Assembly: GCA_035489575.1 (NCBI GenBank) | Contig: DATHJY010000013.1 | Location: forward strand, 283,346-347,345 | Reading direction: 5' to 3' | Length of the DNA: 64,000 nt | Origin: Verrucomicrobiia bacterium | Lineage (GTDB): Bacteria; Patescibacteriota; Saccharimonadia; Saccharimonadales; JAGQNK01 | Part shown: positions 4,393-63,413 of the stretch, in pieces | Layout: every line of letters begins with the position of its first letter | How positions within the stretch are numbered: the first letter of the stretch is position 1 | Notes under the pieces: generated by a model | Told to the model about the DNA's origin: nothing | Database searches by the model: none | What the model saw: the letters and a program-made list of their open reading frames with translations, nothing else | Made by a program: the position numbers and the translations under genes

Positions 4393-7300
4393 CTATGCGC
4401 ACCCGCCAACACCAGAGTTGTTAGAGCGTGACAACTCAACCCAGCGCAAAATAGCAGCGTCTACATACAGCATACTTAAAGTGTCATACTGGCTCGCAGC
4501 ACAAGCTCCCGCTAGCTCAGTTACCCCAGCAGTATCCGCAAAGTCCACAATATTGGCACTGACGTTCACTACATACACCGCCTGCCCACCCGCAACGGGG
4601 GCGGCCTCATCCATGGTAATGTCGCAGGTATCAGGATCGTTACAGGTAATTTCTACGTATGAGCTATTCGGGTTAAGTGTCAGTGCTGCTGGTGAAGCAT
4701 CACCAGTACTTGCAATAGTTCGCGTATCTACACCTAGGACCAGTCTTTCTTCGATAAATATACCGTTAACCGTAGCTCGCAGCTGTGACTGTCCACCAGC
4801 CGCCAGGCGCAAGTCATCGGCTCCGCCCCGATAGACACCAGTATCAGCATCACTCAGGAAGGACAGGGCTGGTGTGCCAGCAGCTCCGTTAGACAACACC
4901 AACTGATTGTTTGTGTTAAAACGAGCGATTTCTGAACCACCAATGTCAAATGAAATGCCACCGAGACTAGATTCATTGAAGGACTTCAGTGTCAGGAGCC
5001 TACCAGCGTTCAACTGACCGCTTTGTGCCAGAGATGTAATGTGACCCATCTGATAAGTCCCGACGACGTCTATAAATGCCAGGGCGCCAGGGTTATTGTA
5101 GTAGATGTTTACTGCCGAATTACCACCGCTGTCTTTGACTCTGAGCCCTTCATTTATGCCGTCTGCCTTTTGCACTATATGCAGCCTGGCGCCAGGGCTA
5201 GTTGTACCGATTCCTATTTTTCGATCACAGGGGCTACCATTGGTAGTACAGAGGAACAAAAGGCTCTCACTTCGACCAAAGTCTAGATCATTGGGTATGC
5301 TGACCGTGGTGCCATTGATGGTAAGCGTATCAGTGTTAGCGTTGCCAATAGTAGAGTTGCCGTTTACCTGCAAGGTGCCTGTGAGTGTTGTATTCCCCGT
5401 TACGGCTAAGTTGCCCGTTGTGCCGGCATCCGTGACCGTCAGGAGATCATTGCCCGAGGTATCCTCAAACGTCCAAACAGTTGCAGACGATGAGAACTGG
5501 CGAATACCGTTTCCTAAGATAAAGTTAGAGTCAACATTGATAGCATTGAAGAAGTCAGAGTCAGATACATCAATCGCATCAGTAGTAGTATCCGTAGAGG
5601 CAGTTGTAAGGAGTAAGTAATCAGTAACTGAGTTGGCGGTGGTCTCGGCATTATCTATCACGAGCAACGCTTCAGTAGTGGCATTAGCCGCATCGTTGGC
5701 ATTAGACACTACAATTCCCCGCTGTGTGCCCGAGCTCGTTTGGTTCGTTATAGTCAGGTTGAAAACATCAGCCGCGTTAGTGCCCGTTAGGGTGCTGCTG
5801 ACCGCCAGATCCTCTGTGTTGGAGAGTGTCCAGGTATGATCAGCTGTCCAGCCAAAAGAGAAGTCTTGGTTAACACGAACCGCGTCACTGTTTAGTTCTA
5901 GTCCATTACCGGTATTGACGTCTAGCGCATTACTGTTTGCGACCAGCCCGTTACCGGCCAAGGCGCTCTCGACTATATCGAAAGTTATCGTATCAGTACC
6001 AGAGTTACCGGTAACGGTTAAGTTAGTACCGGTAACCGCCAGAGTTAACGTGTCCGTGCCACTTGCGGCCTGAGGGTTGGTGCCAGCCGGTACGCTAATA
6101 GTCTGGAACGAGTTAGTGCCACTACCAGCACAGTTAGCCAGTGTTAGTAAGCAGAACGTATCACTGGCGCTAACAGTCGTAGGAATAGCCAGGGCCGTAT
6201 TAGTAGCCAAGGCGCTGCCAACCGATATAGTAGCCGTTTGTCCGTCACCGTCATGGAGTGTCAGGGTACCCTGCTGAATCGCAGACCCAATAGTAGTAGC
6301 TCCCGTAGCTCCCGCGATAGTAAAGTTGGTACCAATTATATCGTTAGCGCCAAATAAGAGTGCGTTCGTTATATCTATATCAGAGACATCGATAGCGTTA
6401 GTGATTCCACCAGCGGCCGATGTAACGATTATGGCACCACTGACGGCGGTATCAGAGTCGGCATTATCTAGGACAAGCAGACCATCTGTGACGCCACTAC
6501 CTGCCGCATTTTGCAGGAGCGCAAGGTTCTGGGTGCCGCTACTTGTGTTGTTAGTAACGGCCATGTTCAGCACGCTTACACTCGTTGTGCCAGTTATTGT
6601 GCTGCCCACGCTCCAATTCTCGCTATCAGTCAGCACAACATCGACGTCGCTATTAAAGCTCGACTGAGCGTTAAAGACGGCCGCATCCTGCACAACGAAT
6701 TCATCAGCGCCATCAATAATCACGTCACCCCCAGCAGCCGATGCGATTGTGACGCCTCCGGTACCCGTTATGTTGCCAATGTTAGTGAGGTTACCGGAGT
6801 TGTCTACGCGAGTGGTTGAGTTGGTCTGCAACACCCCTCCCGTTGTATTGATCGTGCCCGAGGCGGTTAGGGTCGTTACCCCAGAGATTGCGCCACCGGC
6901 ATTGATACCAACAGCTGTTACCGCACCGCTGCTACTCACCTGGAAAGCGTCAGCGGTACCCACAAACAGTGTGCCAGCAAGGTCAGTATTGCCAGATACA
7001 TTCAAGGCAGCTCCTACGGCTACAGTTGTGCCATTATCCGTAACGCTTGAGTTACCAACCGTACCGGTGCCCGTAAATTTGGTAAGGGTATTGTTGGTAC
7101 CAGTACCAGTGATTCCGCCGCCAGAACCTGCACAGTTTCCGGTATTTAGACAAATGTCTGCGTTGCCCCCAACGTCAGGCAGGGTATATATCCGGTTACC
7201 AGCGAATGCACCGGTGGTGATTGTCGCAGTGTTGCTCGAACCGTCGTTCAGAATGAGCGATCCTACCTGAGAAGTAGTACCCACCGTTGCATCACCACCC

Positions 7301-10300
7301 TGGATGGTGATGTCACCCGTAGTACTCACATTTGTACCATCGTCTGTGAGGGTTGAGTCTCCGATTGTGCTGCCGGTTGATGTAAATTTAGCTACTCTAT
7401 TATTTGTGCCCGAGCCCGTTACACCGCCGCCAGAACCTGCACAATTACCAAGTGTTACCAGACAGAACGTATCTGTTGCAGCAGAACTATTTGGTATTGT
7501 GTACGTGCGATCTGCTGTAGGATCTGCAACGGCTAGGGTGAACTCAAAGGCGTCATCAGTGCTTCCCTCAAACTCAAGGTTACCGTCGAATCGAGATATA
7601 CCGCTGTCTACCCATAGAGCGTACGTATCAGCACCCTGTATCCAAACACCATAATCATTCGTTCCCTTTGTTTGGTTCTCTACCAAGACACCAACGTTTT
7701 CGCCCACAGCCGAGCCACCGCCAAGAACGCCCGCACCGGCAACTACTGCAACCGCTCGATCCAGAGTAAAGCCGGCTGCGGCCGTTGATACTGATGCAAA
7801 CATCCCTGCCACACCGTCGTTTAGCCCAGTAGGGTTGTTCGCGGTAACGAGGATAAGGGAGCCGTAACATCCAAACCCGCCACAGACATACCCGCTATCA
7901 AAAGTTTCATTAATACCAACAACGGCGTTAGGACCGGCAGTACCCGTGCCTACACCCAGATGTCCAGTGATATTAGTGTTGTCCTGGAGCGCAATCGTAC
8001 TACCAGCGTTCAGAATAATCTGGTCTGCACTCGTAAGTGTAATGTCGTTCCCTGCTCCAGTACTAGTTATAGATGCAGTCGAACCCTGGAGTAAGGCAGT
8101 CTGACCTGTAGCGCCAAGTGTCATAACTCCGCCAGGGGTAACAGTGAGCGCGCCTGTACTCGTAAGAAGAGGCGTGGTAACACTTGTGCTGAAAATAGGA
8201 TTATCAACTGTCGCAATCGTGAAGTTTCCGCCAGCGCCGCCATCCGCCAAGGAAATATTAGTACCAGCGATTACGGCACGCTCATTGGTCAGAGTGGGAT
8301 CCAGCGTCGTTACGAGATATGTAGCAGCATTTGGCGCACTTCCGCCAGCGCCAACACAGTTGCCTGTATTCAAGCACACCGTTCCTGTCTGGTTGGGGAA
8401 CAAAATAGTCCTGTCGGCAGTAGGATCTACCACCCCAATGGTCGTTCCAAAAGTATCATTTGTCGCTCCCTCTATCTCAAGTGGAGTACCACCCTCCAAC
8501 CAAACACCATTGTCAAACCGTGATAACCCACCGTCGATCCATATCCCATAGGTGCTTGCTGACTGCACATATATCCCAATGTTGGAACCAGCATTGTTCA
8601 GCGTATCTACATAGACGCCGTAAGAAACGCCTATAGAACCGCCTGCCTCGATGTTAGGCGTCTCTACAAAGAGACCTGTAGCGGCCGTAAGCGAACGACC
8701 CGCATCTACATTCACCGCGCCACGATAGGCGCTTAGCATACTTGGGTTAGTCGCACTACCCATTTCCGCCACTGACATTACACCAGCACAACCGTTGAGA
8801 CAGTCTATACCACTATTAAAGGTATTGGTTACCAAAAGAGTCTTGGACGGATCAGCCGTGGCGTTAGATGCATACTCGGTTGTGCCGTTACCAATAGCTG
8901 CACGAGTATCAATATCTATGCTATTACTGGAATGCATGTAGCCTGTCAGATCCAGCGCATCAAACTGTACATCAGAGGTTGTGGCGATATCCTGGGGCGT
9001 TGAAAGTGTAATAAGGCCCGCACCACTCACAACATTAATCTGGTTAGCTGTTCCCTGAACAGTTATAGCTCCTGCCATAGCATTGAGGGTCGTCACCCCT
9101 CCACCACCAGGACATGCCTGCCAACTGGGGGCACCGACGTTGCTGATCAGACACAGGCCAGCACCACCCGAGACGACAGAGGTGATTGCGCTCGCGCCAT
9201 TGCCAACCAGCACACCATTAGCAGTCAGTGAAGCCGCTCCGGTACCTCCGTTAGTAACAGTTAGTGTACCGGTAACCTCTGTGGCCAAGTTAACCAATCC
9301 AACGCTCAGTAAGCCGCCCGTTGAACGAACCACGCCGCTGCCAAGTCCAGAGACTGTCAAGGTGCCGCCAATTGTGGTGTCGCCACTTGGGGCTACAACA
9401 AGTCTGTCAACACCGCCAGACTGGAGTTGTATCAAGCTTCCACCACCAGTGTCATTGATAAATATAGAGGCATCTGCCGTACTGTCAGTCTGCGCTACGC
9501 CAGGCGCCAAGATGACAGGGGTCGCTCCTCCACCACCACAGTTTCCTTGGGTAGTACAAACTGTTTGGGTTGCCCCACCACCGCCAGGAAGTACAAATGT
9601 CCTGCCACCGTCTACAAGCACCACGTTGTCACCAGCAGCATCAATAGTGATGTCATTGCCAGCACCAGTTTGCCTAATAAAGTTACCCTTAATCTCTCCT
9701 GTGGCGTTGACAGTTAGGCTATTGAACTGCACATTGGCGTTGGCGTCTAGATCCTGAGGGGTAGTTATAGTTATATCACCGCCAGAGGTAGTGACTGCAA
9801 TTCGATTTAGAGAACCCTGTATAGTAATCGCTCCTGTTTGGTCGTTCAGGTTGGTGACGCCTGCGCCCGGAATGACAAGTTGGTTGACCTGAGTCTGAAG
9901 TTGCGTAAACTGAGCCTGACTTGCGCTGCTACAGTTATTCGAATCTAAACAAATCGTGCCTGATGCATTCGGCATAGTAATTATTTGGTTTGCAGTAAGC
10001 TCAGTGCTCCTAAGCGTAGTAAAGAAATTGCCGGACCTAACCTTTATCACACCTCTGGTAATTATATCGCCGTTGACCAAAAGCGACGCTTCTGCCCCCT
10101 GAAGCTCCGAAGGGCTCAACCCGTTGACGGCATCAAACGAAACATCTTGGGTAGGCACCGACGACAAGGCATCGCGCTTTTCTGGACCTCTCCTAAACAC
10201 CATGAATGCAACCGCCACAGTCGCTAATACCACTAGCGCAGTTATGACGAGAGACACCAGTGTGGCCCGGCGACGCGAAAATGGCACTGATCGATTGGTA

Positions 10301-10497
10301 GGAGCCGTAGAGCCTGCATCTAACCCACCACTTACCAGTGGTCTTTCACCCTCTGTATGGACTTCTAGCGATTCAATGGGAAATTCTTGGTGTGACGAAT
10401 AGCTAGACACAGGCACGTTAGCGTCTGCACCCTCAAGAGATTCTGACTCGCCTTTTGGGCGTATCAGCTGAGTTGGAGGAAGTGATTTGTCTTCCAT
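4393..10497 (-). CDS. Giant (2034 aa) membrane-anchored Gly/Thr/Ala-rich repeat protein with tail-fibre-like modules
   Basis: Uninterrupted 6.1-kb ORF. It has an ~80-aa N-terminal tail, then a TM helix (LVSLVITALVVLATVAVAFMVF). Cys-pair motifs recur (ICLDSNNC, VCTTQGNC, VCLNTGNC, FCLVTLGNC, ICLNTGNC, FCLLTLANC). A C-proximal IGIGTTSPGARLHIV motif resembles those in tail-fibre-domain proteins. Confidence 0.9.
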   Translation of the reverse strand: MEDKSLPPTQLIRPKGESESLEGADANVPVSSYSSHQEFPIESLEVHTEGERPLVSGGLDAGSTAPTNRSVPFSRRRATLVSLVITALVVLATVAVAFMVFRRGPEKRDALSSVPTQDVSFDAVNGLSPSELQGAEASLLVNGDIITRGVIKVRSGNFFTTLRSTELTANQIITMPNASGTICLDSNNCSSASQAQFTQLQTQVNQLVIPGAGVTNLNDQTGAITIQGSLNRIAVTTSGGDITITTPQDLDANANVQFNSLTVNATGEIKGNFIRQTGAGNDITIDAAGDNVVLVDGGRTFVLPGGGGATQTVCTTQGNCGGGGATPVILAPGVAQTDSTADASIFINDTGGGSLIQLQSGGVDRLVVAPSGDTTIGGTLTVSGLGSGVVRSTGGLLSVGLVNLATEVTGTLTVTNGGTGAASLTANGVLVGNGASAITSVVSGGAGLCLISNVGAPSWQACPGGGGVTTLNAMAGAITVQGTANQINVVSGAGLITLSTPQDIATTSDVQFDALDLTGYMHSSNSIDIDTRAAIGNGTTEYASNATADPSKTLLVTNTFNSGIDCLNGCAGVMSVAEMGSATNPSMLSAYRGAVNVDAGRSLTAATGLFVETPNIEAGGSIGVSYGVYVDTLNNAGSNIGIYVQSASTYGIWIDGGLSRFDNGVWLEGGTPLEIEGATNDTFGTTIGVVDPTADRTILFPNQTGTVCLNTGNCVGAGGSAPNAATYLVTTLDPTLTNERAVIAGTNISLADGGAGGNFTIATVDNPIFSTSVTTPLLTSTGALTVTPGGVMTLGATGQTALLQGSTASITSTGAGNDITLTSADQIILNAGSTIALQDNTNITGHLGVGTGTAGPNAVVGINETFDSGYVCGGFGCYGSLILVTANNPTGLNDGVAGMFASVSTAAAGFTLDRAVAVVAGAGVLGGGSAVGENVGVLVENQTKGTNDYGVWIQGADTYALWVDSGISRFDGNLEFEGSTDDAFEFTLAVADPTADRTYTIPNSSAATDTFCLVTLGNCAGSGGGVTGSGTNNRVAKFTSTGSTIGDSTLTDDGTNVSTTGDITIQGGDATVGTTSQVGSLILNDGSSNTATITTGAFAGNRIYTLPDVGGNADICLNTGNCAGSGGGITGTGTNNTLTKFTGTGTVGNSSVTDNGTTVAVGAALNVSGNTDLAGTLFVGTADAFQVSSSGAVTAVGINAGGAISGVTTLTASGTINTTGGVLQTNSTTRVDNSGNLTNIGNITGTGGVTIASAAGGDVIIDGADEFVVQDAAVFNAQSSFNSDVDVVLTDSENWSVGSTITGTTSVSVLNMAVTNNTSSGTQNLALLQNAAGSGVTDGLLVLDNADSDTAVSGAIIVTSAAGGITNAIDVSDIDITNALLFGANDIIGTNFTIAGATGATTIGSAIQQGTLTLHDGDGQTATISVGSALATNTALAIPTTVSASDTFCLLTLANCAGSGTNSFQTISVPAGTNPQAASGTDTLTLAVTGTNLTVTGNSGTDTITFDIVESALAGNGLVANSNALDVNTGNGLELNSDAVRVNQDFSFGWTADHTWTLSNTEDLAVSSTLTGTNAADVFNLTITNQTSSGTQRGIVVSNANDAANATTEALLVIDNAETTANSVTDYLLLTTASTDTTTDAIDVSDSDFFNAINVDSNFILGNGIRQFSSSATVWTFEDTSGNDLLTVTDAGTTGNLAVTGNTTLTGTLQVNGNSTIGNANTDTLTINGTTVSIPNDLDFGRSESLLFLCTTNGSPCDRKIGIGTTSPGARLHIVQKADGINEGLRVKDSGGNSAVNIYYNNPGALAFIDVVGTYQMGHITSLAQSGQLNAGRLLTLKSFNESSLGGISFDIGGSEIARFNTNNQLVLSNGAAGTPALSFLSDADTGVYRGGADDLRLAAGGQSQLRATVNGIFIEERLVLGVDTRTIASTGDASPAALTLNPNSSYVEITCNDPDTCDITMDEAAPVAGGQAVYVVNVSANIVDFADTAGVTELAGACAASQYDTLSMLYVDAAILRWVELSRSNNSGVGGCA

Positions 10498-11923: not shown

Positions 11924-14812
11924 TTACGCTTGACGTGATAGCCTGATGACCAGCTCACTATCATTTATCTTGTTTGATGCTTCGTAGTCTCCGCTACCTT
12001 CTTTGGTTAGATGATTCGCCAGCGTTTCGGCCTTGATAGTATCGGTATGCTCATGAATAGCTTTCTCAAGTTCTTCGTCTTTCGTAGCCAGCACCAACGC
12101 AATTCTATCGTCCACATTCAGACCTGCTGCCTTACGCGCACTCTGCACATTGCGTACCACCTCGCGCATGAGGCCTTCACGCTTAAGAGTTGGCGTCATC
12201 TGCAAGTCCAATATGACCGTTACGTCATTTGTTTTATTGCACTCAATCTCCTTAACATTCAGTTCTTCCTTAATGATAGCCTCGTAGTCCTCGAGGTTAT
12301 CCATGAAATAGGCTGGCGCACTGCCAAAGGAGACTTTAGCCAAAGGCTGTCTGACTTTTATGCCCTCCTTAGCTCGCACAGAAAGACCAGTATTGATAAC
12401 TTCGCGGGTAAACCGCATGTTATCAACTACAACCTCGTTAACATGCCCTACCTCTGGCCAGTCCGCTAAGTGCACCGATTCACCACCCGTAAGCTTCTGG
12501 TACAACTCTTCGGCAAGGAAAGGTGTGAAAGGAGCCATGACATGCGCCAGCTGCATCAGAACGTAATGGAGGGTTTTGTATGCATCGTTCTTGTCGTCAC
12601 TGTCGCCGCTCTTCCAGAAGCGTCGACGAGAGCGACGAACATACCAGTTAGAGGCGTCTTCGATGAAAGGCAGAATCGGCTTCGTGGCGTTCGGGAGGTC
12701 ATACTTATCCATATGCTGTTCAACTTCATGAATCAGCTGGTGCAGCCGAGATACAATCCATTGATCCAGTGGATTCTTGAGGTCGCTCGCCGGGTCTTGG
12801 CACGTGCCGTCCCACTCCCAGCCATCAACCTCGGCATACATAGTAAAGAAGTCATACATATTCCAAACCATACTCAGTTTGCGTGCCGTATCAGCCACTT
12901 CCTTATCCGTTAGCGCGAAGTCCTCAGCGTTAAGTATTGGCGAGCTAAGTAGTAAAAATCTCAACGAATCCGCACTATATGTATCCATCAGTACGTTGGG
13001 GTCAGTATAGTTTCCAAAGCTCTTACTCATCTTTCGACCATCGTTACCGGCAAGCGTACCCGTGACGATCACATTCTTGAAAGAGTTCTTGCCAAACAAC
13101 CCCACACTCACTGCATGAAGGTAGTAAAACCAGGCCCGAACCTGACCCACATACTCTACGATATAATCTCCGGGGAAATTTTGTTCAAACTTCTCTTGGT
13201 TCTCGAATGGGTAGTGGAACTGCGCAAAGGGCATAGATCCGCTCTCGAACCAACAGTCCAACACCTTATCTATGCGTTTGTATTCAACGCCGTCCAGCCT
13301 GAAGGTCACGTCATCAACCCATGGTCGGTGATAGTCTTCAAGCTCTATCCCTGATAGGTCTTTGAGCTCTTGATAGCTTCCGACCACCTTGATGTGTTCT
13401 TTGCCATCCTTGTCCGTGCCTTTCCAGACCGGCATAGCCGTAGCCCAAAAGCGGTCACGGCTCAGGTTCCAGTCCGGAGCACTCTGAACAGTTTTTGCGA
13501 AGCGTCCGTTCTTGATATGTCCCGGGAACCAATTAATATCCCCATTCTGCTCAAGCATCCCTTCGCGCTGACCATTGATATCCATAAACCAACTTGGGTG
13601 CGCCCGGTACATCAGTCTGTTATGGCAGCGGTGGCAGTGAGGATAGCTATGGGTGACATATTCTATTTTCCACACCATGCCTCGAGCATGGAGTTCTTTA
13701 GCAATTGGCTTGTTCACTTCCCAGATATTTTCACCCTGCCACTCACCATCAACGTACAGGCCGTTATCATCAACGTTATTCACAAAGGGAAATCCCTTCT
13801 CCTTTGCCAGGTGATAATCTTCTTCACCAAACGCGGGTGCCAGGTGAACAATACCCGTGCCCTCTTTGAGTGATACATAGTCTGCATGCCAGACCCGATG
13901 AGCCTTGTCGCCACGATCTTCAAAAAGTGGCTCATAAGACTTGCCAACCAAGTCCTTGCCCTTGAGGGTACGTAGTAACTTATACGACAATACTTGATGT
14001 TTCTCATCTGTTAGGACTTTGCCTAGCAGATCCTTGGCGAGGATCAGTTTCTGACCGTCCACCTCGATTTCGGCGTATAGCTCTTCTTGATTAACGGCAA
14101 CAGCCGTATTGGCCGGCAGAGTCCAAGGGGTAGTTGTCCAGGCTAGCAAGGACGTACCCTCATCTTTCAGTTTGAACTTTACAAAGACCGAAGGATCAGT
14201 CACGTCCTGATAGCTATTGTCCATAGCAACCTCAGCCTTAGAGATAGGCGTAGCATCGCGCGTACAGTAAAGCAGTACCTTTTCTCCTTCATAGATCTTA
14301 CCGGCGTCATACAGCTCCTTAAAAGCCCACCAGACTGATTCCATGTAGTCTTTATCCATGGTTTTGTAGGCACCCCTGAAGTCTACCCAGCGACCAACGC
14401 GATCAATAGTGTCCTCCCAGAGGTTGCCAGTCTGAACCATGTTTGCCCGACAGGTAGTGATGTACTCTTCCAGACTCACCTTTGTACCGATGTCTCGCTT
14501 GTCTTTGATACCAAGTTTTTTCTCAGTAAAGACTTCTGCCGGTAGGCCATGGCAATCCCAACCCCAAACACGCTCCACTCGTTTGCCTTTCATCGTCCAG
14601 TAGCGTGGCACTGCGTCTTTGGCGATAGAGCTCAGGAGCGTTCCATGGTGTGGTTCTCCGGTGATAAAGGGAGGACCATCGTAGAACACATACGAGTTTT
14701 CTTTTGGTCGGTTTTCTACCGACTTCTCAAAGGTCTTATGTTCTTTCCAGTATTTGACGAGATCTTTTTCGTACTCGAGTGGCTTGCGTCTGGTGCCTTG
14801 TTTAAACTTCAT
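11924..14812 (-). CDS. ileS: Isoleucine--tRNA ligase (type 2-like, 962 aa)
   Basis: FYDGPPFITGEPHHGT (HIGH-type motif), GWDCHGLPAE and KMSKSFGNY (KMSKS). The upstream leader displays an AUC specifier. Confidence 0.85.
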   Translation of the reverse strand: MKFKQGTRRKPLEYEKDLVKYWKEHKTFEKSVENRPKENSYVFYDGPPFITGEPHHGTLLSSIAKDAVPRYWTMKGKRVERVWGWDCHGLPAEVFTEKKLGIKDKRDIGTKVSLEEYITTCRANMVQTGNLWEDTIDRVGRWVDFRGAYKTMDKDYMESVWWAFKELYDAGKIYEGEKVLLYCTRDATPISKAEVAMDNSYQDVTDPSVFVKFKLKDEGTSLLAWTTTPWTLPANTAVAVNQEELYAEIEVDGQKLILAKDLLGKVLTDEKHQVLSYKLLRTLKGKDLVGKSYEPLFEDRGDKAHRVWHADYVSLKEGTGIVHLAPAFGEEDYHLAKEKGFPFVNNVDDNGLYVDGEWQGENIWEVNKPIAKELHARGMVWKIEYVTHSYPHCHRCHNRLMYRAHPSWFMDINGQREGMLEQNGDINWFPGHIKNGRFAKTVQSAPDWNLSRDRFWATAMPVWKGTDKDGKEHIKVVGSYQELKDLSGIELEDYHRPWVDDVTFRLDGVEYKRIDKVLDCWFESGSMPFAQFHYPFENQEKFEQNFPGDYIVEYVGQVRAWFYYLHAVSVGLFGKNSFKNVIVTGTLAGNDGRKMSKSFGNYTDPNVLMDTYSADSLRFLLLSSPILNAEDFALTDKEVADTARKLSMVWNMYDFFTMYAEVDGWEWDGTCQDPASDLKNPLDQWIVSRLHQLIHEVEQHMDKYDLPNATKPILPFIEDASNWYVRRSRRRFWKSGDSDDKNDAYKTLHYVLMQLAHVMAPFTPFLAEELYQKLTGGESVHLADWPEVGHVNEVVVDNMRFTREVINTGLSVRAKEGIKVRQPLAKVSFGSAPAYFMDNLEDYEAIIKEELNVKEIECNKTNDVTVILDLQMTPTLKREGLMREVVRNVQSARKAAGLNVDDRIALVLATKDEELEKAIHEHTDTIKAETLANHLTKEGSGDYEASNKINDSELVIRLSRQA

Positions 14813-15056
14813 GATATTTGCTCCTTAGATATAAAAAATCATCTCTCTTGAATATCAGAACCCCTTTAGGGGTGGTACCATCTGATTTCCAAAAGAGATG
14901 ACTCTTTTAGCACTTACTTATCGCTGTTACGGGCTGCCCGACAGGTTCTACTTATTCCGAGCCCATTGAAGGATTTGCTCAAAACTTTCTTCCCGTAGCT
15001 CGTGGTTGATAGCCACTTTTCTAGCTGTGCTAGATCGCCTTTTCCAAATTGTTACA
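14813..15056 (-). promoter_or_regulatory. T-box leader (Ile specifier AUC) of ileS
   Basis: In the RNA sense: AAUCAGA-UGGUACC-ACCCC-uaaa-GGGGU-UCUGAU, a textbook antiterminator with the 7-nt T-box bulge at 14873-14880. A U-run follows. The GUGG-CUAUCAA-CCAC hairpin (15002-15016) shows AUC+A at 15008-15010. The -10 TACAAT is at 15063-15068. Confidence 0.65.
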
Positions 15057-15094
15057 GGGGTAATTGTAGCGCATACAACACCTCTTACGCAAGT

Positions 15095-15358
15095 TTACGA
15101 GTTTGCGTATCCGGCTACTTCATCCATGAGGGGTAGCGAGGGTCCTGGCCACACCTTGGCCAACTCACCGTCGTCCCTTACCGCCAATAGCGACGGATAC
15201 TGAACAATGTCGTATAACCTTGCCATGTCCGATCCATCCCTTGTCTCAAGATCCTTGAGCTCTATTACCTTGCCACGCTGCGACTCAAAGTCATGGGCGT
15301 ACTCTTCCATCTGGCGCGCAAACTCGCCTTTTGAATGGTACAAGATGATCAATTTCAT
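15095..15358 (-). CDS. Small thioredoxin-fold-like protein without a CxxC motif (87 aa)
   Basis: ORF track. MKLIILYHSKGEFARQ... has HSKG where glutaredoxin/NrdH proteins carry CxxC. It lies directly downstream of nrdJ. Confidence 0.5.
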   Translation of the reverse strand: MKLIILYHSKGEFARQMEEYAHDFESQRGKVIELKDLETRDGSDMARLYDIVQYPSLLAVRDDGELAKVWPGPSLPLMDEVAGYANS

Positions 15359-33504: not shown

Positions 33505-33973
33505 CCAAATATATCACTCATGATAAGCCATGAATGTAAGATATATCACAGATGATATATTGTAACGATGTCCATGCAGTTGGGCACGGATAGATTATTA
33601 AAGGCAAACAGTGGTGAGTGGTCTCACCAATAACTAGTCAATGTACTTCCCTATGATCATTTCTGATAAAATTATCAGATTTGATCATAGGTCGTAAAAA
33701 GTCAATGGGACTATTAGTACGCTTCGGCTCAATACGTTACCGCACTTTCACCTTGCGCCTATCAAACTGATCGTCTTTCAGTGTCCTCATAGGGAAATCT
33801 TATCTTGGGATCAGTTTCGCGCTTAATATGCTTTCAGCGCTTATCTGCTCCGCACATAGCTACCCAACCATGCCATTGGTATGACAATTGGTACACCAGC
33901 GGTGCGTTCACCCCGGTCCTCTCGTACTAGGGGCAAATTCCCTCAAATTTCCTATCGTCCACAGCGGATATAA

Positions 33974-34007
<34 letters not shown>

Positions 34008-34125
34008 ACGTACCTCTTTAACCGGCGAACAGCCGGACCCTTGGAAGGTGCTCCCCCTCCAGGATGAGATGAGCCGACATCGAGGTGCCAAACAGCGCCG
34101 TCTATGTGAACTATTGGGCGCTATA

Positions 34126-34157
<32 letters not shown>

Positions 34158-34517
34158 GTGCGTCGTCGATCCCACTTTCATATAACCGAAGTTAAATACG
34201 ACGGGTCACTAGCTCCTACTTTCGTATCTGTTTGGCCTGTATGCCTCACAGTCAAGCTGGCTTATGCGCTTGCACTATCACTTCGATTTCCATCCGAAGT
34301 TAGCCAACCTTTGAACGCCTCCGCTACTCTTTAGGAGGCAACCGCCCCAGTTAAACTACCCATCAGACACTGTCCCCAAACCGGATAACGGTTGAGGTAA
34401 GAACACAAATACAATAAGGGTGGTATTTCACCGGTGACTCCACCAAAGCTAGCGCCTTGGTTTCAAAGTCTCCCACCTATGCTACACATATTGCACCTAT
34501 GCCCAATGTCAAACTGT

Positions 34518-34549
<32 letters not shown>

Positions 34550-34844
34550 GCGGACAGACGGCATCTTTACCGTCAATGCACTTTCACCGAGCTCTTCGTT
34601 GAGACAGTGCCCACATCATTACTCCATTCGTGCGGGTCAGAACTTACCTGACAAGGAATTTCGCTACCTTAGGACGGTTATAGTTACCGCCGCCGTTCAC
34701 TGGGGCTTCAGTTCGCACCGTGAAGCGCTCCCCTTAACCTTCCAGCACCGGGCAGGAGTCAGCCCCTATACATCCACTTTCGTGTTAGCAGAGACCTGTG
34801 TTTTTGGTAAACAGTTGCGTGGGCTCCTTAGCTGCGGCCTAGAT

Positions 34845-34995
34845 ATGCCGCAGTGGTTCCAATTGCACTAAAGTACTGTACTCCGAAGAGTACATACCCT
34901 AGTATGATGTCACTTATCTCAATCTTGAGTCGTATCGTAAAAGCCACCGAAGTGGCTATTGTTACTCTATGTTCATCTTAGAAACACTGCGGCAT
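34845..34995 (-). other. 23S rRNA expansion (~150 nt) in the variable helix-63 region
   Basis: It is closed by the perfect 11-bp inverted repeat ATGCCGCAGTG / CACTGCGGCAT. Inside are two UUCG-capped hairpins (CCACuucgGUGG and GUACUCuucgGAGUAC). E. coli has ~75 nt between the flanking conserved blocks; this gene has ~200. Confidence 0.6.
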
Positions 34996-35493
34996 ACCCA
35001 GGCAGACCTTATCCCGAAGTTACGGTCGCTGTATTGCCGAGTTCCTTAACGAAGAATCACTCGTACGCCTTGGTCTTCTCGACCTGAGCACCTGTGTCGG
35101 TTTGCGGTACGGATAGCCATACACATAAGTTATCAAGCTTTTCTAGTCACCACTCTCGCAAGAATCAGCCAATAAAGGCCTCTCATTCGCAGTTGTTACG
35201 CTGCTTAGACGGATATAACCATGAATCCGCTCCTACTAACATGATGCGCACTGATAACAATGTATGACTAGTACGGGAATATTAACCCGTTGTCCATCGC
35301 CTACGCTACGCGCCTCGGCTTAGGACCGACTAACCCTGGGACGATTACCGTGGCCCAGGAAACCTTGCTCTTTCGGCGGGCAGGATTCTCACCTGCCTTG
35401 TGGTTACTCATTCCAGCATTCTCACTTCATACCGCTCCACCGGACCTCACAGTCCGACTTCGATGCAATATGAACGCTCCTCTACCGCTCATG

Positions 35494-35628
35494 CATAGCA
35501 TAAGCAGATCCATGCTTCTGATTTCCGCCATCAGAAAGTCTTTTAGCTCCCTGTCCCTTGGTCAAAATTTCTTTTGGCCGGTGGACCGTTGAGCTCTTAA
35601 GACTGTCGTTGAATCTGCTTATGCTATA
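35494..35628 (-). other. IVS-like insertion (~135 nt) at the tip of 23S helix 45
   Basis: It lies between the conserved blocks CACCGAAG and GGUAGAGGAGCGUUC. It is closed by a perfect 15-bp stem, ATAGCATAAGCAGAT / ATCTGCTTATGCTAT. E. coli has ~28 nt at this position. Confidence 0.65.
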
Positions 35629-36502
35629 CACAAGCCCATATCTTCGGTGCTATGCTTGAGCCCCGTTACATTTTCCGCGCAAGATCTCTTGACGAGTGAG
35701 CTGTTACGCACTCTTTAAATGAATGGCTGCTTCTAAGCCAACATCCTCGTTGTTTAAGAAATCTCACCTCGTTTCCCACTTAGCATAGACTTGGGGACCT
35801 TAGATGATGGTCTGGGCTGTTTCCCTTTCGAGCGCCGAGCTTAGCCCCGACGTTCTAACTGCTGTAGTTCCACTGATAGTATTCGTAGTTTATCAAGGGT
35901 GGGTACCCTTGCGGGCCCCAGTCCGAAACAGAGCTCTACCCCTATCAGCTACCGTACAACGCTAGCCCTAAAGCTATTTCGAGGAGAACCAGCTATCTCC
36001 AAGTTCGATTGGCATTTCACCGCTAACCACAGGTCATCCGGGGGTTTTGCAACACCCTACGGTTCGGTCCTCCACGCAGTTTTACCTGCGCTTCAACCTG
36101 CCCATGGTTAGGTCACTTGGTTTCGGGTCTACTAAACAGTACTATGGTCGGCCTATTCAGCCTCGCTTTCACTACGCGTCCGCCAGATGGCTTACGCTTG
36201 CACTGCTTAAGTAACTCGCTGGATCGTTCTACAAAAAGCACGCCGTCACCCCGAAGGGCTCCGACTCCTTGTACGCACACAAATTCAGGTTCTATTTCAC
36301 TCCCCTTCCGGGGTTCTTTTAACCTTTCCCTCACGGTACTTGTTCTCTATCGATCATAAGATATATTTAGCCTTGGGACGTGGTCGTCCCAGCTTCAGTC
36401 AAGGTTTCACGTGTCCCGACCTACTCGACAAAACAAATATAAGGTTAGCGAAACTTGGCATACCAGGCTTTCACTGTCTATGGCCAGTCTTTCCAGACTA
36501 TT

Positions 36503-36675
36503 CTGCTCGCATCGCTAATTTCTTACCTTATGCAGGTTGGTGATAGCACCTGCTTCCAAAACGGAATTCTAGACTAGGTCTAGTGCTCCGTCTTGGTTGT
36601 TTGTAATGTCACAACCCCTTTTAGATATTCGTCTATCAACTTATCCGTCTGAATTAACAGACAGAAACCTAAAAA
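36503..36675 (-). other. 23S rRNA domain I insertion (~140 nt extra)
   Basis: It lies between GCGAGCGAA..GCCCAAAC and AGUCUGGAAAGACUGGCC. E. coli has ~30 nt there; this gene has ~175. Local hairpins include GGTTGT..ACAACC and CTAGAC..GTCTAG. Confidence 0.5.
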
Positions 36676-37605
36676 GTTTGGGCTCTTGCGGATTCGCTCG
36701 CCACTACTACCGCAATCGTTGTTTACTTTCTATTCCTCGAGGTACTAAGATGTTTCAGTTCCCCCGGTTCCCTTCAACAAGCCTATATATTCAGCTTGAG
36801 ATGACTAGGCATGACCCCAGCCGGATTTCTCCATTCGGACATCTTCGGTTCATAGCTTAGTAAGCAGCTCCCCGAAGCTTTTCGCAGCTTCTCACGTCCT
36901 TCATCGGTATCTTATGTCAAGGCATCCCTTGTGTGCGCTTGAGTAACTTTTTACGATTTCATCCGTTGGGCAAAGCCCAATGAATGATTAGTGCCTGCGG
37001 GACAAAGTCCTGCAGACTCTAAAAGTACAATTGACTAGTTATTGGTATTACCAATAACCTAGTGCAGTTTTACTGCACTAGTATGAAATGTGATAACTGC
37101 TTATGCAGCTTTAAACATTTCATGCCGTTTGCCTTTAATCTCAAAATTTGAATCTAATTGTTAAGATACGACTCAAGACGGCCCACAAAACTATCTTGTT
37201 TCTTAGCACTGTAACTTGAGTTTACGCTAAAAGCTTGGCGGTTTATTACGAGTGCCTCGTGCCTAAACTCAAGCAGCCCAAGCATTTTAGCACTAATAAC
37301 AGAGGCGGTCAACCCTCTGGTGCTGTAAAAGAAGCTACAGTTTATACTCTGTTCTCATCAGTTGTGACGATCTAGGGCTTAACCGACACCGTAGCGAATA
37401 GTAGCTAAAAGGCCCACCTCTATCATTAGCACCCCGTATTGCTAGAGTATGACCCTAGCCGTCAATACAATCCCACTAGACATAGCTTATAGATGCCCTA
37501 CCAATGGCAGGTCATAATAGATACAGTTAAACTATCTCTATGCGTCAAAAACTGTGTATGGTCTTTTGCAAAGAAAAGAGGCGTCTAGTAGACGCCTCTT
37601 TTCTT

Positions 37606-37692: not shown

Positions 37693-37769
37693 TGGTGGGG
37701 CTGAGAGGACTCGAACCTCTGACCTCGTCATTATCAGTGACGCGCTCTAACCAGCTGAGCTACAGCCCC
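37693..37769 (-). tRNA. tRNA-Ile (GAU), CCA encoded
   Basis: The reverse complement is GGGGCTGTAGCTCAGCTGGTTAGAGCGCGTCACTGATAATGACGAGGTCAGAGGTTCGAGTCCTCTCAGCCCCACCA. The discriminator base is A73. Confidence 0.95.
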
Positions 37770-38040
37770 AAAATACCAGCGTATTGTACCTGAAACTCCC
37801 CTGTTAAACAATACCGACCCGACCAAACAAAAAGAACGCCTCTCGCAATTGGCGTCCTTTTTTTGTTTGGAAGTTAAAAACTTCTGTAGTGCTATCAACG
37901 TCAAGTTCGGTTTTCGCTACTGTATCTTGTCCACCGAAGTGGATATTTAAGCTGTCAGTAACGACACAGCTTAACAAGATCGACCTAGCTCACATGGGAT
38001 AAATCCGCATGCTGCTAGTAAATCTCCCTAGAAAGGAGGT

Positions 38041-39530
<1,490 letters not shown>

Positions 39531-61113: not shown

Positions 61114-62958
61114 CTATAGTGAAGTCTTGTTTACTCGAGACTTAGCTTCGTTGGCAACTGTCTTGAGGAATTCCTCGATACCGAGAGCTTGGTGCGGTTT
61201 CTGCACTTCCATGTCTGATCGAACCCGAGGGATCACCTGGCCGGTGTCTATCTCTTTTTCACCAACAACAATAGTGTATGGAACCTTCATAAGCTCGGCA
61301 TTACGAATTTTTTTACCTACAGACTCATTGTCATTGTCCAAGTGTATTCGCAGCCCATAGTCCCGTGCCTGCTGCTTCACCTTCTCGGCAAAAGCCACTG
61401 TAGCATCTTCTTGGTTCACGGTTATCAACCGTACCTGTTCAGGGGCCAACCATACAGGAAATTTGCCAGCCGTATGCTCTATGTACACAGAGAAAAAGCG
61501 GTCGAAGCTACCCATGATTGCACAGTGAATCATGATGGGCTGTTGCTTTTCACCCTTCTCGTTGATATAAGTCAGCTCAAAGCGGTCGGGCTGCACAAAA
61601 TCAAACTGTACTGTGGCAACCTGCAAGACTCGCCCTATGGCGTCTTGTGCCATGAAATCGAGCTTGGGACCGTAGAACGCCGCCTCTCCTTCTTCGGCAT
61701 AGTAGTCGAGATTATTTCGTGCAGCAATCTCTGTCAGCTTTTTCTGACCAAAGTCCCAGAGTTCTTGGGAACCAAGATATGACTCGCTATCGTCCCTAAA
61801 TGAGAGCCGAAGTTTGAGCGACATATCTACAGCAGCGTAGAATTCTTGTACCTTTTCTATAAGCTGGTCAAAGATTTCGTCTACTTGATCAGGTCGGCAA
61901 TAGGTATGGCTATCATCTTGGGTCAATGACCTAACTCGAGACAGCCCATGTAATTCCCCCGTCTTCTCATCACGGTAGTTAGTGGTTGTCTCCATAAGCT
62001 TAACGGGAAGGTCCCGATAACTCCGGGAGCGGGCAGCATATATCTGGGTGTGGTGGGGGCAGTTCATAGGTTTCATGACAAGCTCGTCCGACGTTTCTTG
62101 GCTTTTGACTAAGAATAATTCATCGCCAAATTTTGCCCAGTGTCCCGACTTTTCGTAAAGCTCTTTTTTGGTAATGTGTGGTGACCAAACCCGCTCAAAC
62201 CCCAACTGCTCTCGTACTTCTTCAGAAAAACCGATAAGACCATTACGAATGGTCGTGCCCCGAGGGGTATAGAGGGGCAGTCCGCTCCCGACCAGATCGG
62301 AGAAGATAAACAGGTCCAGCTCCTGTCCGAGTTTGCGGTGGTCGCGCTTTTTGGCCTCTTCGAGCATGTCCAGGTGCTTTCGAAGATCCTTCTCTGTTGC
62401 GAAGGCTACGCCATAGAGGCGCTGCATCTGTGGATTTTTCTCGTTGCCACGCCAGTAAGCACCCGCTACACGCATAAGCTTGAACGCGCCCACCTTGCTC
62501 GTTGATTCGACGTGAGGACCCCGACATAAGTCAGTAAAGTCCCCATTCTTATAAAAGGACACTTTGTCCAGTGCCGCGTCCCCTTCCGCAAGGGTTCCGA
62601 GCTCTTCGGCATTGAGATCTTTGGCTACGGTTGTGCCGGCTCGTTTGAGGTCATTCAACAGCTCTTCTTTATATGGCTGGTTGCTCTCCTTGGCCCAAGA
62701 GATGGCATCATCTATGGGCTTCTCGAAACGTTCAAAAGGCTGATTCTCGGAGATGATCTTGCGCATTTCTGTCTCAATGCGCTCGAAATCTTCCTCTGAT
62801 ACCTTGGTATCGCCGAGGTCTATATCGTAATAAAAGCCGCTCTCTACTGCGGGACCCACTCCGAACTTTGCCGTAGGCCACAGGTGTTGGACTGCAGTAG
62901 CGGTGATATGCGCCAGACTGTGTCTTATTGCATATAGTTGGTCGTTTTGTTGGCTCAT
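61114..62958 (-). CDS. thrS: Threonine--tRNA ligase (no N-terminal TGS domain)
   Basis: 614 aa. It starts at the editing-domain motif IRHSLAHITATAVQHLWP and has class II core motifs (FRDE-like region, GSFDRF). The upstream leader displays an ACC specifier. Confidence 0.9.
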   Translation of the reverse strand: MSQQNDQLYAIRHSLAHITATAVQHLWPTAKFGVGPAVESGFYYDIDLGDTKVSEEDFERIETEMRKIISENQPFERFEKPIDDAISWAKESNQPYKEELLNDLKRAGTTVAKDLNAEELGTLAEGDAALDKVSFYKNGDFTDLCRGPHVESTSKVGAFKLMRVAGAYWRGNEKNPQMQRLYGVAFATEKDLRKHLDMLEEAKKRDHRKLGQELDLFIFSDLVGSGLPLYTPRGTTIRNGLIGFSEEVREQLGFERVWSPHITKKELYEKSGHWAKFGDELFLVKSQETSDELVMKPMNCPHHTQIYAARSRSYRDLPVKLMETTTNYRDEKTGELHGLSRVRSLTQDDSHTYCRPDQVDEIFDQLIEKVQEFYAAVDMSLKLRLSFRDDSESYLGSQELWDFGQKKLTEIAARNNLDYYAEEGEAAFYGPKLDFMAQDAIGRVLQVATVQFDFVQPDRFELTYINEKGEKQQPIMIHCAIMGSFDRFFSVYIEHTAGKFPVWLAPEQVRLITVNQEDATVAFAEKVKQQARDYGLRIHLDNDNESVGKKIRNAELMKVPYTIVVGEKEIDTGQVIPRVRSDMEVQKPHQALGIEEFLKTVANEAKSRVNKTSL

Positions 62959-63151
62959 AGCCGCTCCTTGGTTTAGAGAAATAAAAAGCGCGCCTAGAGA
63001 TTAAAACTCTCTGATAGCGCGTCTCGGTCCCAGATTACGGGAGGTTCCACCTCGACTTTTGCTCTTGCGACATTGGTTATCGTACCTCTGTTGCCACTCC
63101 TACGAAGCTCGGTGGTTGGTGAGGCCACTTCAACACTTAAGCCTTATTATA
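62959..63151 (-). promoter_or_regulatory. T-box leader (Thr specifier ACC) of thrS, with promoter and terminator
   Basis: In the RNA sense: GUCGAGG-UGGAACC-UCCC-guaaucu-GGGA-CCGAGAC is the antiterminator (bulge at 63043-63051). An overlapping terminator GACGCGC..AGAGA..UCUCU..GGCGCGC + UUUUU lies at 62983-63025. The GUGG-CCUCACCAA-CCAC hairpin shows ACC+A at 63118-63120. The -10 TATAAT is at 63146-63151. Confidence 0.7.
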
Positions 63152-63413
63152 CACCCCTGTTATAAAAAGAAAAAGTGATTGAACGCTCTCGCAACTGCAT
63201 TCAATCACTTTCTTTTCTGGTCAAAACCTCTCGGCAAAACTTCGCCTACAAAGATCATACCATACTGGTATGATCCGGCTAGCCTTTTTATGCTGTTTTT
63301 CTTACATCTCCACATGGGGATAACTCAACCGAGCCGATATCATATTTGATATACAAAATAAGCCCTCCTCGTACAAAATGCCAACCAGAACCTATGTATG
63401 CTACAATTATATT

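Follow-up and report, generated by a model that had tools for sequence, protein, structure and literature searches.

The 64,000-nucleotide (nt) stretch of Saccharimonadia DNA analyzed here, referred to below as the window, carries an element at 14833-15039 on its minus strand, upstream of the isoleucyl-tRNA synthetase gene ileS, whose sequence supports its identification as a genuine T-box riboswitch. Its anatomy, its conservation and the match of its codon and discriminator to tRNA-Ile are laid out below, and its response to tRNA is predicted. The reading we favor, with a probability of about 0.72, is that the element responds to uncharged tRNA-Ile(GAU) and attenuates the transcription of ileS through a terminator that targets Stem III and the adjoining RAG purines. 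Positions are those of the window, and features lie on the minus strand unless stated otherwise.

The regulated gene, ileS, is the open reading frame (ORF) at 11924-14812, encoding 962 amino acids (aa). The protein matches the Pfam families tRNA-synt_1 (9.9e-113) and Anticodon_1 and has a DUF5915 C-terminal domain; a class I synthetase core combined with an anticodon-binding domain and DUF5915 identifies it as isoleucyl-tRNA synthetase (IleRS). The leader occupies the 282-nt gap between this ORF and an 87-aa ORF at 15095-15358. The presumed ligand, tRNA-Ile(GAU), is encoded at 37693-37769. Its anticodon is complementary to the AUC codon displayed by the leader, and its gene ends in ...CAGCCCC-A-CCA, so that A73 and an encoded CCA are available to pair with the UGGU of the T-box bulge. 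The closest public ileS loci all came from Saccharibacteria/Saccharimonadia metagenome-assembled genomes, with 69-77% identity at the IleRS protein level, which settles the lineage of the DNA.

Rfam match and conservation of the leader

A preliminary description of this DNA, made by reading the sequence alone, had proposed a T-box here and named the Rfam T-box model, RF00230, as one check. At the gathering threshold, Rfam returned no T-box match in the window, the ileS leader included. Below it there was a clear match of 42 bits at 14853-14991, its E value being 5.3e-8 when calculated for the region and 6.7e-6 over the whole window. The alignment drops 79 of the 88 Stem I positions, replacing those 88 model positions with 9, and it covers the Stem II S-turn (GAA / AGUAG), the IIA hairpin with CCGUAA, the AAGUG purines, Stem III (CUAAAAG...CUUUUGG) and the segment AAAUCAGAUGGUACCACCCC...GGGGUUCUGAU. 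Judged by this alignment, the homology of the leader's 3' two-thirds to RF00230 is clear despite the low score. The leader also folds more stably than 200 of 200 shuffles (z = -3.4).

We then compared 80 ileS loci from species-representative Saccharimonadia genomes. In about 64 of them, an exact UGGNACC lies 60-180 nt 5' of the start codon and is accompanied by a 4-bp hairpin bearing a 7-nt AUC loop. Two covariance models were built from MAFFT alignments, one (R2) for the decoding domain and one (R1) for the discriminator and terminator. Besides the window, 74 loci were matched in the 5' domain and 72 in the 3' domain, and the loci that lacked a match were mostly on incomplete contigs. The element is therefore present upstream of ileS in about 74 of the 80 genomes, with compensatory changes in every helix. 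Covariation was measured on the MAFFT alignments, which are not fitted to the structure. Whole-structure measures on paired cells and the covariation score exceeded those of all 500 shuffles, and the measures collapsed once the partner columns were slid by 1-3 positions. Model-fitted alignments of 73-77 sequences gave the same picture. The T-box assignment of the preliminary description, and the conservation across orthologous leaders on which it had staked that assignment, were thus borne out by the subthreshold match and by covariation.

Anatomy of the element

The specifier is displayed by an ultrashort Stem I at 15002-15016, a 4-bp GUGG/CCAC helix capped by the 7-nt loop CUAUCAA, with AUC at 15010-15008 followed by the conserved purine A15007. 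This helix was paired in 99.7-100% of cells, with compensatory changes at all four pairs. The loop consensus is YYAUCAN, and AUC occupied loop positions 3-5 in each of 74 complete ileS hairpins. A codon matching the synthetase and followed by a purine is therefore presented in the Stem I loop. In place of the long Stem I of canonical transcriptional T-boxes, with its AG bulge and distal interdigitated T-loops, there is only this 4-bp hairpin. A specifier in the terminal loop of a short Stem I, with ileS as the regulated gene, is instead the arrangement of the ultrashort (US) class of T-boxes. The preliminary description had correctly picked out GUGG-CUAUCAA-CCAC (15016-15002) as an ultrashort Stem I. 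This hairpin is not bare, its base being a GA/K-turn-like junction that a short covarying helix, Pa, closes.

Helix Pa pairs GGC (15037-15039) with GCU (14997-14999) and closes a junction that bears Stem I and a second hairpin, H0. Its three pairs were formed in 26-28 of 32 sequences (81-88%), with the variants UGC/GCA, AGC/GCU, UAC/GUA and AAC/GUU, and most exceptions came from four visibly misaligned rows. H0 (UCUAGC-ACA-GCUAGA, 15020-15034) is inserted on the 5' side of the junction, under Stem I. About half of the orthologues, like the window, have a hairpin of variable sequence at this position; the others have a plain UCC-GUUNGA...GA-GGA K-turn-like loop, and H0 is therefore not essential. 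In many relatives the specifier hairpin stands on a short UCC/GGA helix with a 4-nt bulge that resembles a K-turn, and its flanks are GA...GA in relatives and AA...GA in the window. Comparison of the leaders supports both Pa and H0 as real structures, and from the GA/GA motif and helix Pa we infer a K-turn at the base of Stem I. In two loci (L021:1165-1485 and L079:1094-1477), 270-330 nt separate the specifier hairpin from the T-box bulge, and a second, weaker match to the 5'-domain model lacks an AUC loop, which points to either a large insertion or a decoding domain duplicated in part.

Stem II (14941-14996) consists of a basal helix, ACGGG/CCUGU, an S-turn formed by AAGAA (14991-14987) opposite AAGUAGAA (14953-14946), and a variable distal helix. 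The basal helix was paired in about 93-93.7% of cells and the distal helix in 75-77%, and in each all five pairs showed compensatory changes. The adjoining region (14921-14940) holds Stem IIA, CGG/CCG (14940-14930), an F-box-like CCCGUAA (14933-14927) and the strand GCG (14924-14922), which pairs with the IIA loop to form the IIB pseudoknot. Stem IIA was 94-99.6% paired, with one of three pairs compensatory. The pseudoknot was 63% paired, with changes at four of four pairs and the variants CAGC/GCUG, ACAG/CUGU, CCGG/CCGG and CGC/GCG. The S-turn, the IIA/B pseudoknot and the F-box expected of a T-box can thus be recognized by the motifs GAA/AGUAGA and CCCGUAA, the support being weaker for IIB.

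The next part of the leader, 14915-14887, has the order RRRxG (RAG)-Stem III-AA. The purine string AAGUG (14911-14915), conserved as AAG(N)GC, lies directly 5' of Stem III, which has the sequence CUAAAAGAG-UCAU-CUCUUUUGG (14889-14910), was identified by the Rfam alignment and is joined to the next helix by an AA linker (14887-14888) that falls in a near-invariant GGAA. Stem III was 82-100% paired, with eight of nine pairs compensatory, was conserved in about 60 loci, and appears in the minimum free energy (MFE) fold of a transcript cut before the terminator strand. The preliminary description had suggested a hairpin AAAGAG/CUCUUU as a competing element and perhaps the real switch. That hairpin is present, as AAAAGAG/CUCUUUU, and the evidence supports it as the real competitor; it is not an extra element, however, but Stem III of the T-box itself, flanked by its purines and linker. 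In published structures, 5'-RRRxG-Stem III-AA-3' is integral to the aminoacylation sensor. The RAG purines contact tRNA A76 and the antiterminator (PMC7583486, PMC11297988), touching the terminal adenosine of the tRNA (PMC11297988), and in the T-boxes studied an antiterminator alone, without Stem III, does not bind tRNA (PMC7583486).

The T-box sequence proper (14854-14886) consists of helix A1 (AUCAGA/UCUGAU), the 7-nt bulge UGGUACC (14880-14874) and helix A2 (ACCCC-UAAA-GGGGU), and the antiterminator AAUCAGA-UGGUACC-ACCCC-UAAA-GGGGU-UCUGAU quoted in the preliminary description lies at 14887-14854. A1 was 98.9% paired, with compensatory changes at four of six pairs, and A2 was 99.3-99.4% paired, with changes at three of four. 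The bulge read UGGUACC in 62 of 73 ileS loci, UGGAACC in 4, UGGCACC in 4, UGGGACC in 1 and UGGUAAC in 2 (L053 and L066). In the window, the variable base is U, complementary to A73 of tRNA-Ile(GAU), as had been proposed.

The terminator and how it may be switched

The leader ends in a terminator (14833-14853) whose 3' strand, AUUCAAGAGAGAUGA (14853-14839), is followed by a U6 tract (14838-14833). We identified it by covariation, duplex energies and MFE folding. The preliminary description had an outer stem stacked directly on A1 and followed by U6. The outer stem, CAUCUCUUUUGG / UUCAAGAGAGAUG, and the UUUUUU after it are indeed there, but the stacking is not seamless, as an A/A mismatch intervenes. 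The MFE fold of the full leader is one long hairpin made up of a lower helix, UCAUCUCUUUUGG/UUCAAGAGAGAUGA, the A/A mismatch, A1, the unpaired UGGUACC and A2, followed by U6. The T-box bulge therefore lies unpaired inside an extended, covarying terminator hairpin, as had been noticed. The lower helix draws its 5' strand from Stem III, whose loop and 3' half it takes up, so that the two structures are alternatives, and both conformers covary; the lower helix was paired in 73-84% of cells, with 12 of 13 pairs compensatory. In the window, a transcript cut before the terminator strand folded into Stem III plus A1/bulge/A2 at -21.5 kcal/mol, and the full leader folded into the extended hairpin at -37.9 kcal/mol. 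The corresponding means for the 52 loci of group a were -22.0 and -34.7 kcal/mol, and the bulge was unpaired in 96% of the full-length MFE folds of that group.

Duplex energies pointed the same way. Across 63 leaders, the strand preceding the U-tract paired with its own Stem III region at a mean of -13.4 kcal/mol, compared with -7.6 for permuted partners (z = -15.7). No canonical terminator partner for the 3' strands of A1 and A2 was found in these leaders, in which the duplex of the pre-U strand with them averaged only -4.2 kcal/mol. The terminator 5' strand is thus not supplied by A1 and A2, as it would be in a canonical switch, and the T-box helix is preserved within the terminator. In 61 of the 63 leaders a stable hairpin led directly into 4-7 consecutive U, mostly 10-60 nt 5' of the start codon. 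In the window, the Shine-Dalgarno (SD) sequence AAGGAG (14826-14821) begins 6 nt 3' of the U-tract, is unpaired and lies with the ileS start codon (14812-14810) outside all conserved helices.

On our preferred reading, the anticodon of tRNA-Ile would pair with AUC in the terminal loop of the ultrashort, K-turn-based Stem I, and Stem II with its S-turn and the IIA/B pseudoknot would back this decoding, as in actinobacterial ileS T-boxes. The tRNA's 3' end, ACCA, would pair with the UGGU of the bulge between A1 and A2, and the RAG purines, Stem III and the AA linker would clamp the resulting complex. The pre-U6 strand, whose complement lies in the loop and 3' half of Stem III, would prolong A1 downward into the long terminator hairpin. 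When no tRNA or only charged tRNA is available, nothing would dock, the terminator strand would displace Stem III, the hairpin would reach the U-tract and RNA polymerase would stop; in group b, described below, the same strand would capture the RAG box. Because Stem III and the purines are part of the sensor, with RAG touching the tRNA end, our proposal is that docking of uncharged tRNA-Ile would lock Stem III, together with RAG and AA, onto the complex of A1/A2 with the tRNA, which would block strand invasion and allow readthrough into ileS. The T-box helix would be common to the ON and OFF states. This scheme accommodates all of the sequence evidence; tRNA binding, readthrough and Stem III locking are what we infer.

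The alternatives differ in what they make of the long hairpin. If it were a folding artefact, the 3' strands of A1 and A2 could leave the antiterminator for a terminator farther downstream, as in all transcriptional T-boxes studied (PMC7583486), and in related genomes the terminator of the thrS T-box does overlap the A1 3' strand. We give such canonical switching hardly any credence, given the weak pairing of the pre-U strand with A2/A1 compared with the Stem III region, the covariation of the Stem III-to-terminator pairing, and the distance of only 20 nt from the U-tract to the ATG, which holds no segment complementary to the A1/A2 3' strands. Translational control, in which tRNA would free the SD and the U-rich hairpin would be no terminator, has in its favor a 5' domain architecture identical to that of the actinobacterial US ileS T-boxes, together with the description of the ultrashort class as translational (bioRxiv 10.1101/2023.02.28.530422; PMC7583486). 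It is nevertheless very unlikely here: the ileS leader has no SD-occluding sequestrator, the SD lies beyond the conserved helices, nearly all leaders have the hairpin and U run, and in some loci a gene between the T-box and ileS fits transcriptional control and not control of ileS translation initiation.

More closely related to our scheme is the idea that tRNA binds the bulge of a preformed long hairpin, with UGGUACC displayed in both conformers and the minor groove taking in the RAG and AA purines, and that it stops closure of the lower helix sterically or topologically, Stem III being no essential competitor. The frequency of unpaired bulges in group a agrees with this, as does group b, in which there is no Stem III and GGGGCUU pairs straight with the RAG box AAGUCCC. 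The conservation and covariation of Stem III elsewhere, and the failure of studied antiterminators to bind tRNA without it, make this unlikely as a general account, although it overlaps strongly with the mechanism proposed above and may be its group-b form. Finally, the leader could be the remnant of a decayed T-box, or a plain constitutive attenuator or terminator that does not sense tRNA; the low Rfam score, the loss of the distal Stem I platform and the variable A2 G.U pair are what such decay might leave. Yet at 69-77% IleRS identity the AUC loop is invariant (74 of 74), there is hardly any variation in UGGNACC, the GA of A1, the S-turn, the F-box or RAG, every helix shows compensatory changes and a parallel thrS element bears Thr codons, and we consider decay a very slim prospect.

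Several observations weigh against the mechanism that we prefer. The RF00230 score is under half of the curated cut-off (42 versus 93 bits), so that by the profile's own rule the ileS leader family is not a recognized member, and 0 of 20 orthologous ileS leaders reached the gathering score. The prevailing view is that transcriptional T-boxes depend on a long Stem I to capture tRNA quickly (PMC7583486), which argues against an ultrashort Stem I acting cotranscriptionally. In the 12 group-b loci Stem III is absent and is replaced by AAGUCCC-AA-A1; the terminator strand GGGGCUU pairs there with the AAGUCCC box, which stands at the RAG/RRRxG position. A contest between Stem III and the terminator therefore cannot be the whole story, and a competing Stem III hairpin is not strictly required. 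The IIB pseudoknot of the window is weak, with just 2 bp formed. Nine ileS leaders (L012, L014, L021, L028, L041, L045, L046, L050 and L054) have UGGA, UGGC or UGGG in the bulge. The closing pair of A2 (alignment A4 columns 101/143, A14873-U14860 in the window) was G.U in only 29 of 73 loci, G-C in 20, U-A in 14 and A-U in 10, the last being the pair in the window; in the T-boxes studied this G.U is the steric sensor of the aminoacyl group, and aminoacylation sensing may therefore differ in detail here. A consensus promoter scan of the leader found no promoter, so that the promoter and start site of the leader are uncertain. A putative promoter region (15048-15092) holds two candidates, TTGCGT (15092-15087) with an 18-nt spacer and TACAAT (15068-15063), and a -10-like TAACAAT (15054-15048) that aligns with the TACAAUUUGG motif of orthologous leaders.

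About 10 orthologous loci have the ileS T-box farther upstream, at a distance of 400-1300 nt from the gene. Both of the two that we checked, L054:824-1432 and L003:1149-1499, have an extra ORF between the T-box and ileS, one of 202 aa and the other of 116 aa, so the T-box may control a small operon there. The 202-aa product may be a 3-methyladenine DNA glycosylase I, which it resembles in sequence.

Relation to known T-boxes and to the thrS leader

T-boxes are textbook regulators of Gram-positive bacteria. The ultrashort, or class II, ileS T-boxes of Actinobacteria are represented by those of M. tuberculosis, M. smegmatis and N. farcinica (Sherwood et al. 2015; PDB 6UFM and related structures, as presented in the papers that cite them). 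According to a 2023 preprint on the ileS T-box of M. smegmatis, the ultrashort class is translational by definition, and ileS is what all of its members regulate (bioRxiv 10.1101/2023.02.28.530422). By architecture and literature, the leader described here resembles that class in its ileS target, in showing AUC in the terminal loop of a very short K-turn Stem I without a distal tRNA-elbow platform, and in its Stem II S-turn, IIA/B pseudoknot, RAG, Stem III, AA and A1/UGGN bulge/A2. It differs in having an intrinsic terminator (hairpin and U6) in place of an SD sequestrator, with the SD outside the switch, in its host, a member of the Saccharibacteria within the candidate phyla radiation (CPR), and in the hairpin that the window and about half of its relatives carry in the K-turn junction.

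With canonical transcriptional T-boxes (RF00230; B. subtilis tyrS and glyQS), the leader shares a putative tRNA-dependent attenuation ahead of an aminoacyl-tRNA synthetase gene, a codon followed by a purine, UGGNACC, Stem II, IIA/B, Stem III and a U-tract. Unlike them, it lacks the long Stem I with its AG bulge and interdigitated T-loops, scores 42 bits against the required 93, and has a terminator that extends A1 and consumes Stem III/RAG, so that the T-box helix would persist in the OFF state. A full-text literature search found no report of a T-box in Saccharibacteria, Patescibacteria, CPR or TM7, within a limited literature set that leaves their absence unproven. We conclude that, within the literature searched, this is probably an undescribed variant that combines a US-type decoding domain and a standard discriminator core with transcriptional output through a terminator targeting Stem III/RAG. 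Whether it amounts to a previously undescribed Saccharibacteria class, in which an ultrashort Stem I, hitherto linked with slow translational ileS switches in Actinobacteria, drives a cotranscriptional decision between the terminator and a Stem III/RAG latch, the antiterminator helix stays folded in both states and the design extends to thrS, is to our mind an evenly balanced question.

If it does, the tRNA-elbow platform would be dispensable for transcriptional T-boxes, and latching of Stem III and the purines would suffice as the switching step; evolution appears to have made Stem III/RAG the terminator's target. Two generalizations would be contradicted, that an ultrashort Stem I means translational control, and of ileS only, and that transcriptional T-boxes require a long Stem I. 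The conserved family described here also widens the known range of T-boxes to CPR/Saccharibacteria, which have minimal genomes and few known regulators. Rfam does not report that family at its curated threshold, and the TBDB class II search, as designed, would miss it, its model having been run only on Actinobacteria and on class I hits whose Stem I is truncated (PMC7778990). Such leaders can be annotated in CPR genomes with the two covariance models and their alignments.

The window holds a second leader of this kind upstream of thrS (61114-62958). The thrS T-box, at about 62959-63135, has an ultrashort Stem I, the specifier hairpin AAGUGGCCUCACCAACCAC (63112-63130), with a 9-nt loop, CCUCACCAA, that shows ACC followed by A, and its bulge, GGUGGAACC (63051-63043), has A as the variable base. 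Among 80 thrS loci of relatives from metagenomes (L081-L160), GGUGGNACC, with the bulge UGGAACC, was found in 56 and also in the window. The loop triplet preceding A was ACC in 34, ACU in 5 and ACG in 1, and so was a Thr codon in all 40 leaders with a located hairpin. Together with AUC in all 74 ileS hairpins, this upholds the claim that the codon tracks the synthetase.

The preliminary description had called the two specifier hairpins homologous, with the codon as their only systematic difference. The ACC followed by A stands, but the codon is not the sole difference. The loop has 9 nt and not 7, and the 5' ileS model gave no match to the thrS leader and the 3' model only 12.5 bits (E about 2). 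Apart from their shared design, the two leaders are therefore not closely homologous. Rfam gave no T-box match to the thrS leader of the window even at E values up to 10. The thrS terminator abuts or overlaps the A1 3' strand and is nearer to the canonical arrangement than that of ileS. What the leaders have in common is the ultrashort Stem I with a terminal-loop codon, the UGGNACC bulge, terminator output and the same genomes; thrS departs in its 9-nt loop with ACC/ACU/ACG, its N = A, a shorter decoding domain and the overlapping terminator.

Also upstream of thrS is a conserved, RNA-like element about 90 nt long, at 63170-63255 in the window and at L082:563-659, L084:373-466, L085:378-482, L090:473-567, L093:381-471, L099:384-478, L123:550-635 and L131:214-315 in relatives. 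A near-invariant 5' block, AGGYGAAGUUUUGNCGAGANUGUUUU, is followed by a variable middle and by a terminator hairpin that covaries, UUGAAUG-nnUGCGAGAn-CAUUCAA, with a U-tract behind it. This hairpin lies within the terminator loop of the thrS T-box in some loci, and in others the element replaces the T-box. Rfam had no match for it. A loop motif near thrS, TTGCGAGA, occurred 5 times against 2 expected, which is not a convincing signal of a repeated element.

The sole call of a consensus terminator scan, which is blind to terminators with a bulged stem, was the plus-strand reverse complement of the ileS specifier hairpin, and we rejected it because there is no gene there to terminate. Downstream of ileS, an L21 gene and a 297-aa ORF lies a 2034-aa ORF (4393-10497); neither of these two ORFs had a match, the longer one having none in Pfam at E values up to 1e-5. 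The 23S rRNA gene (33693-36953) is 3261 nt long, compared with the 2925 positions of the model, with several insertions of about 40-75 nt in domain I, and in the 16S rRNA gene (38032-39530) about 31 nt are inserted near position 80. Such insertions in rRNA genes are typical of CPR bacteria.

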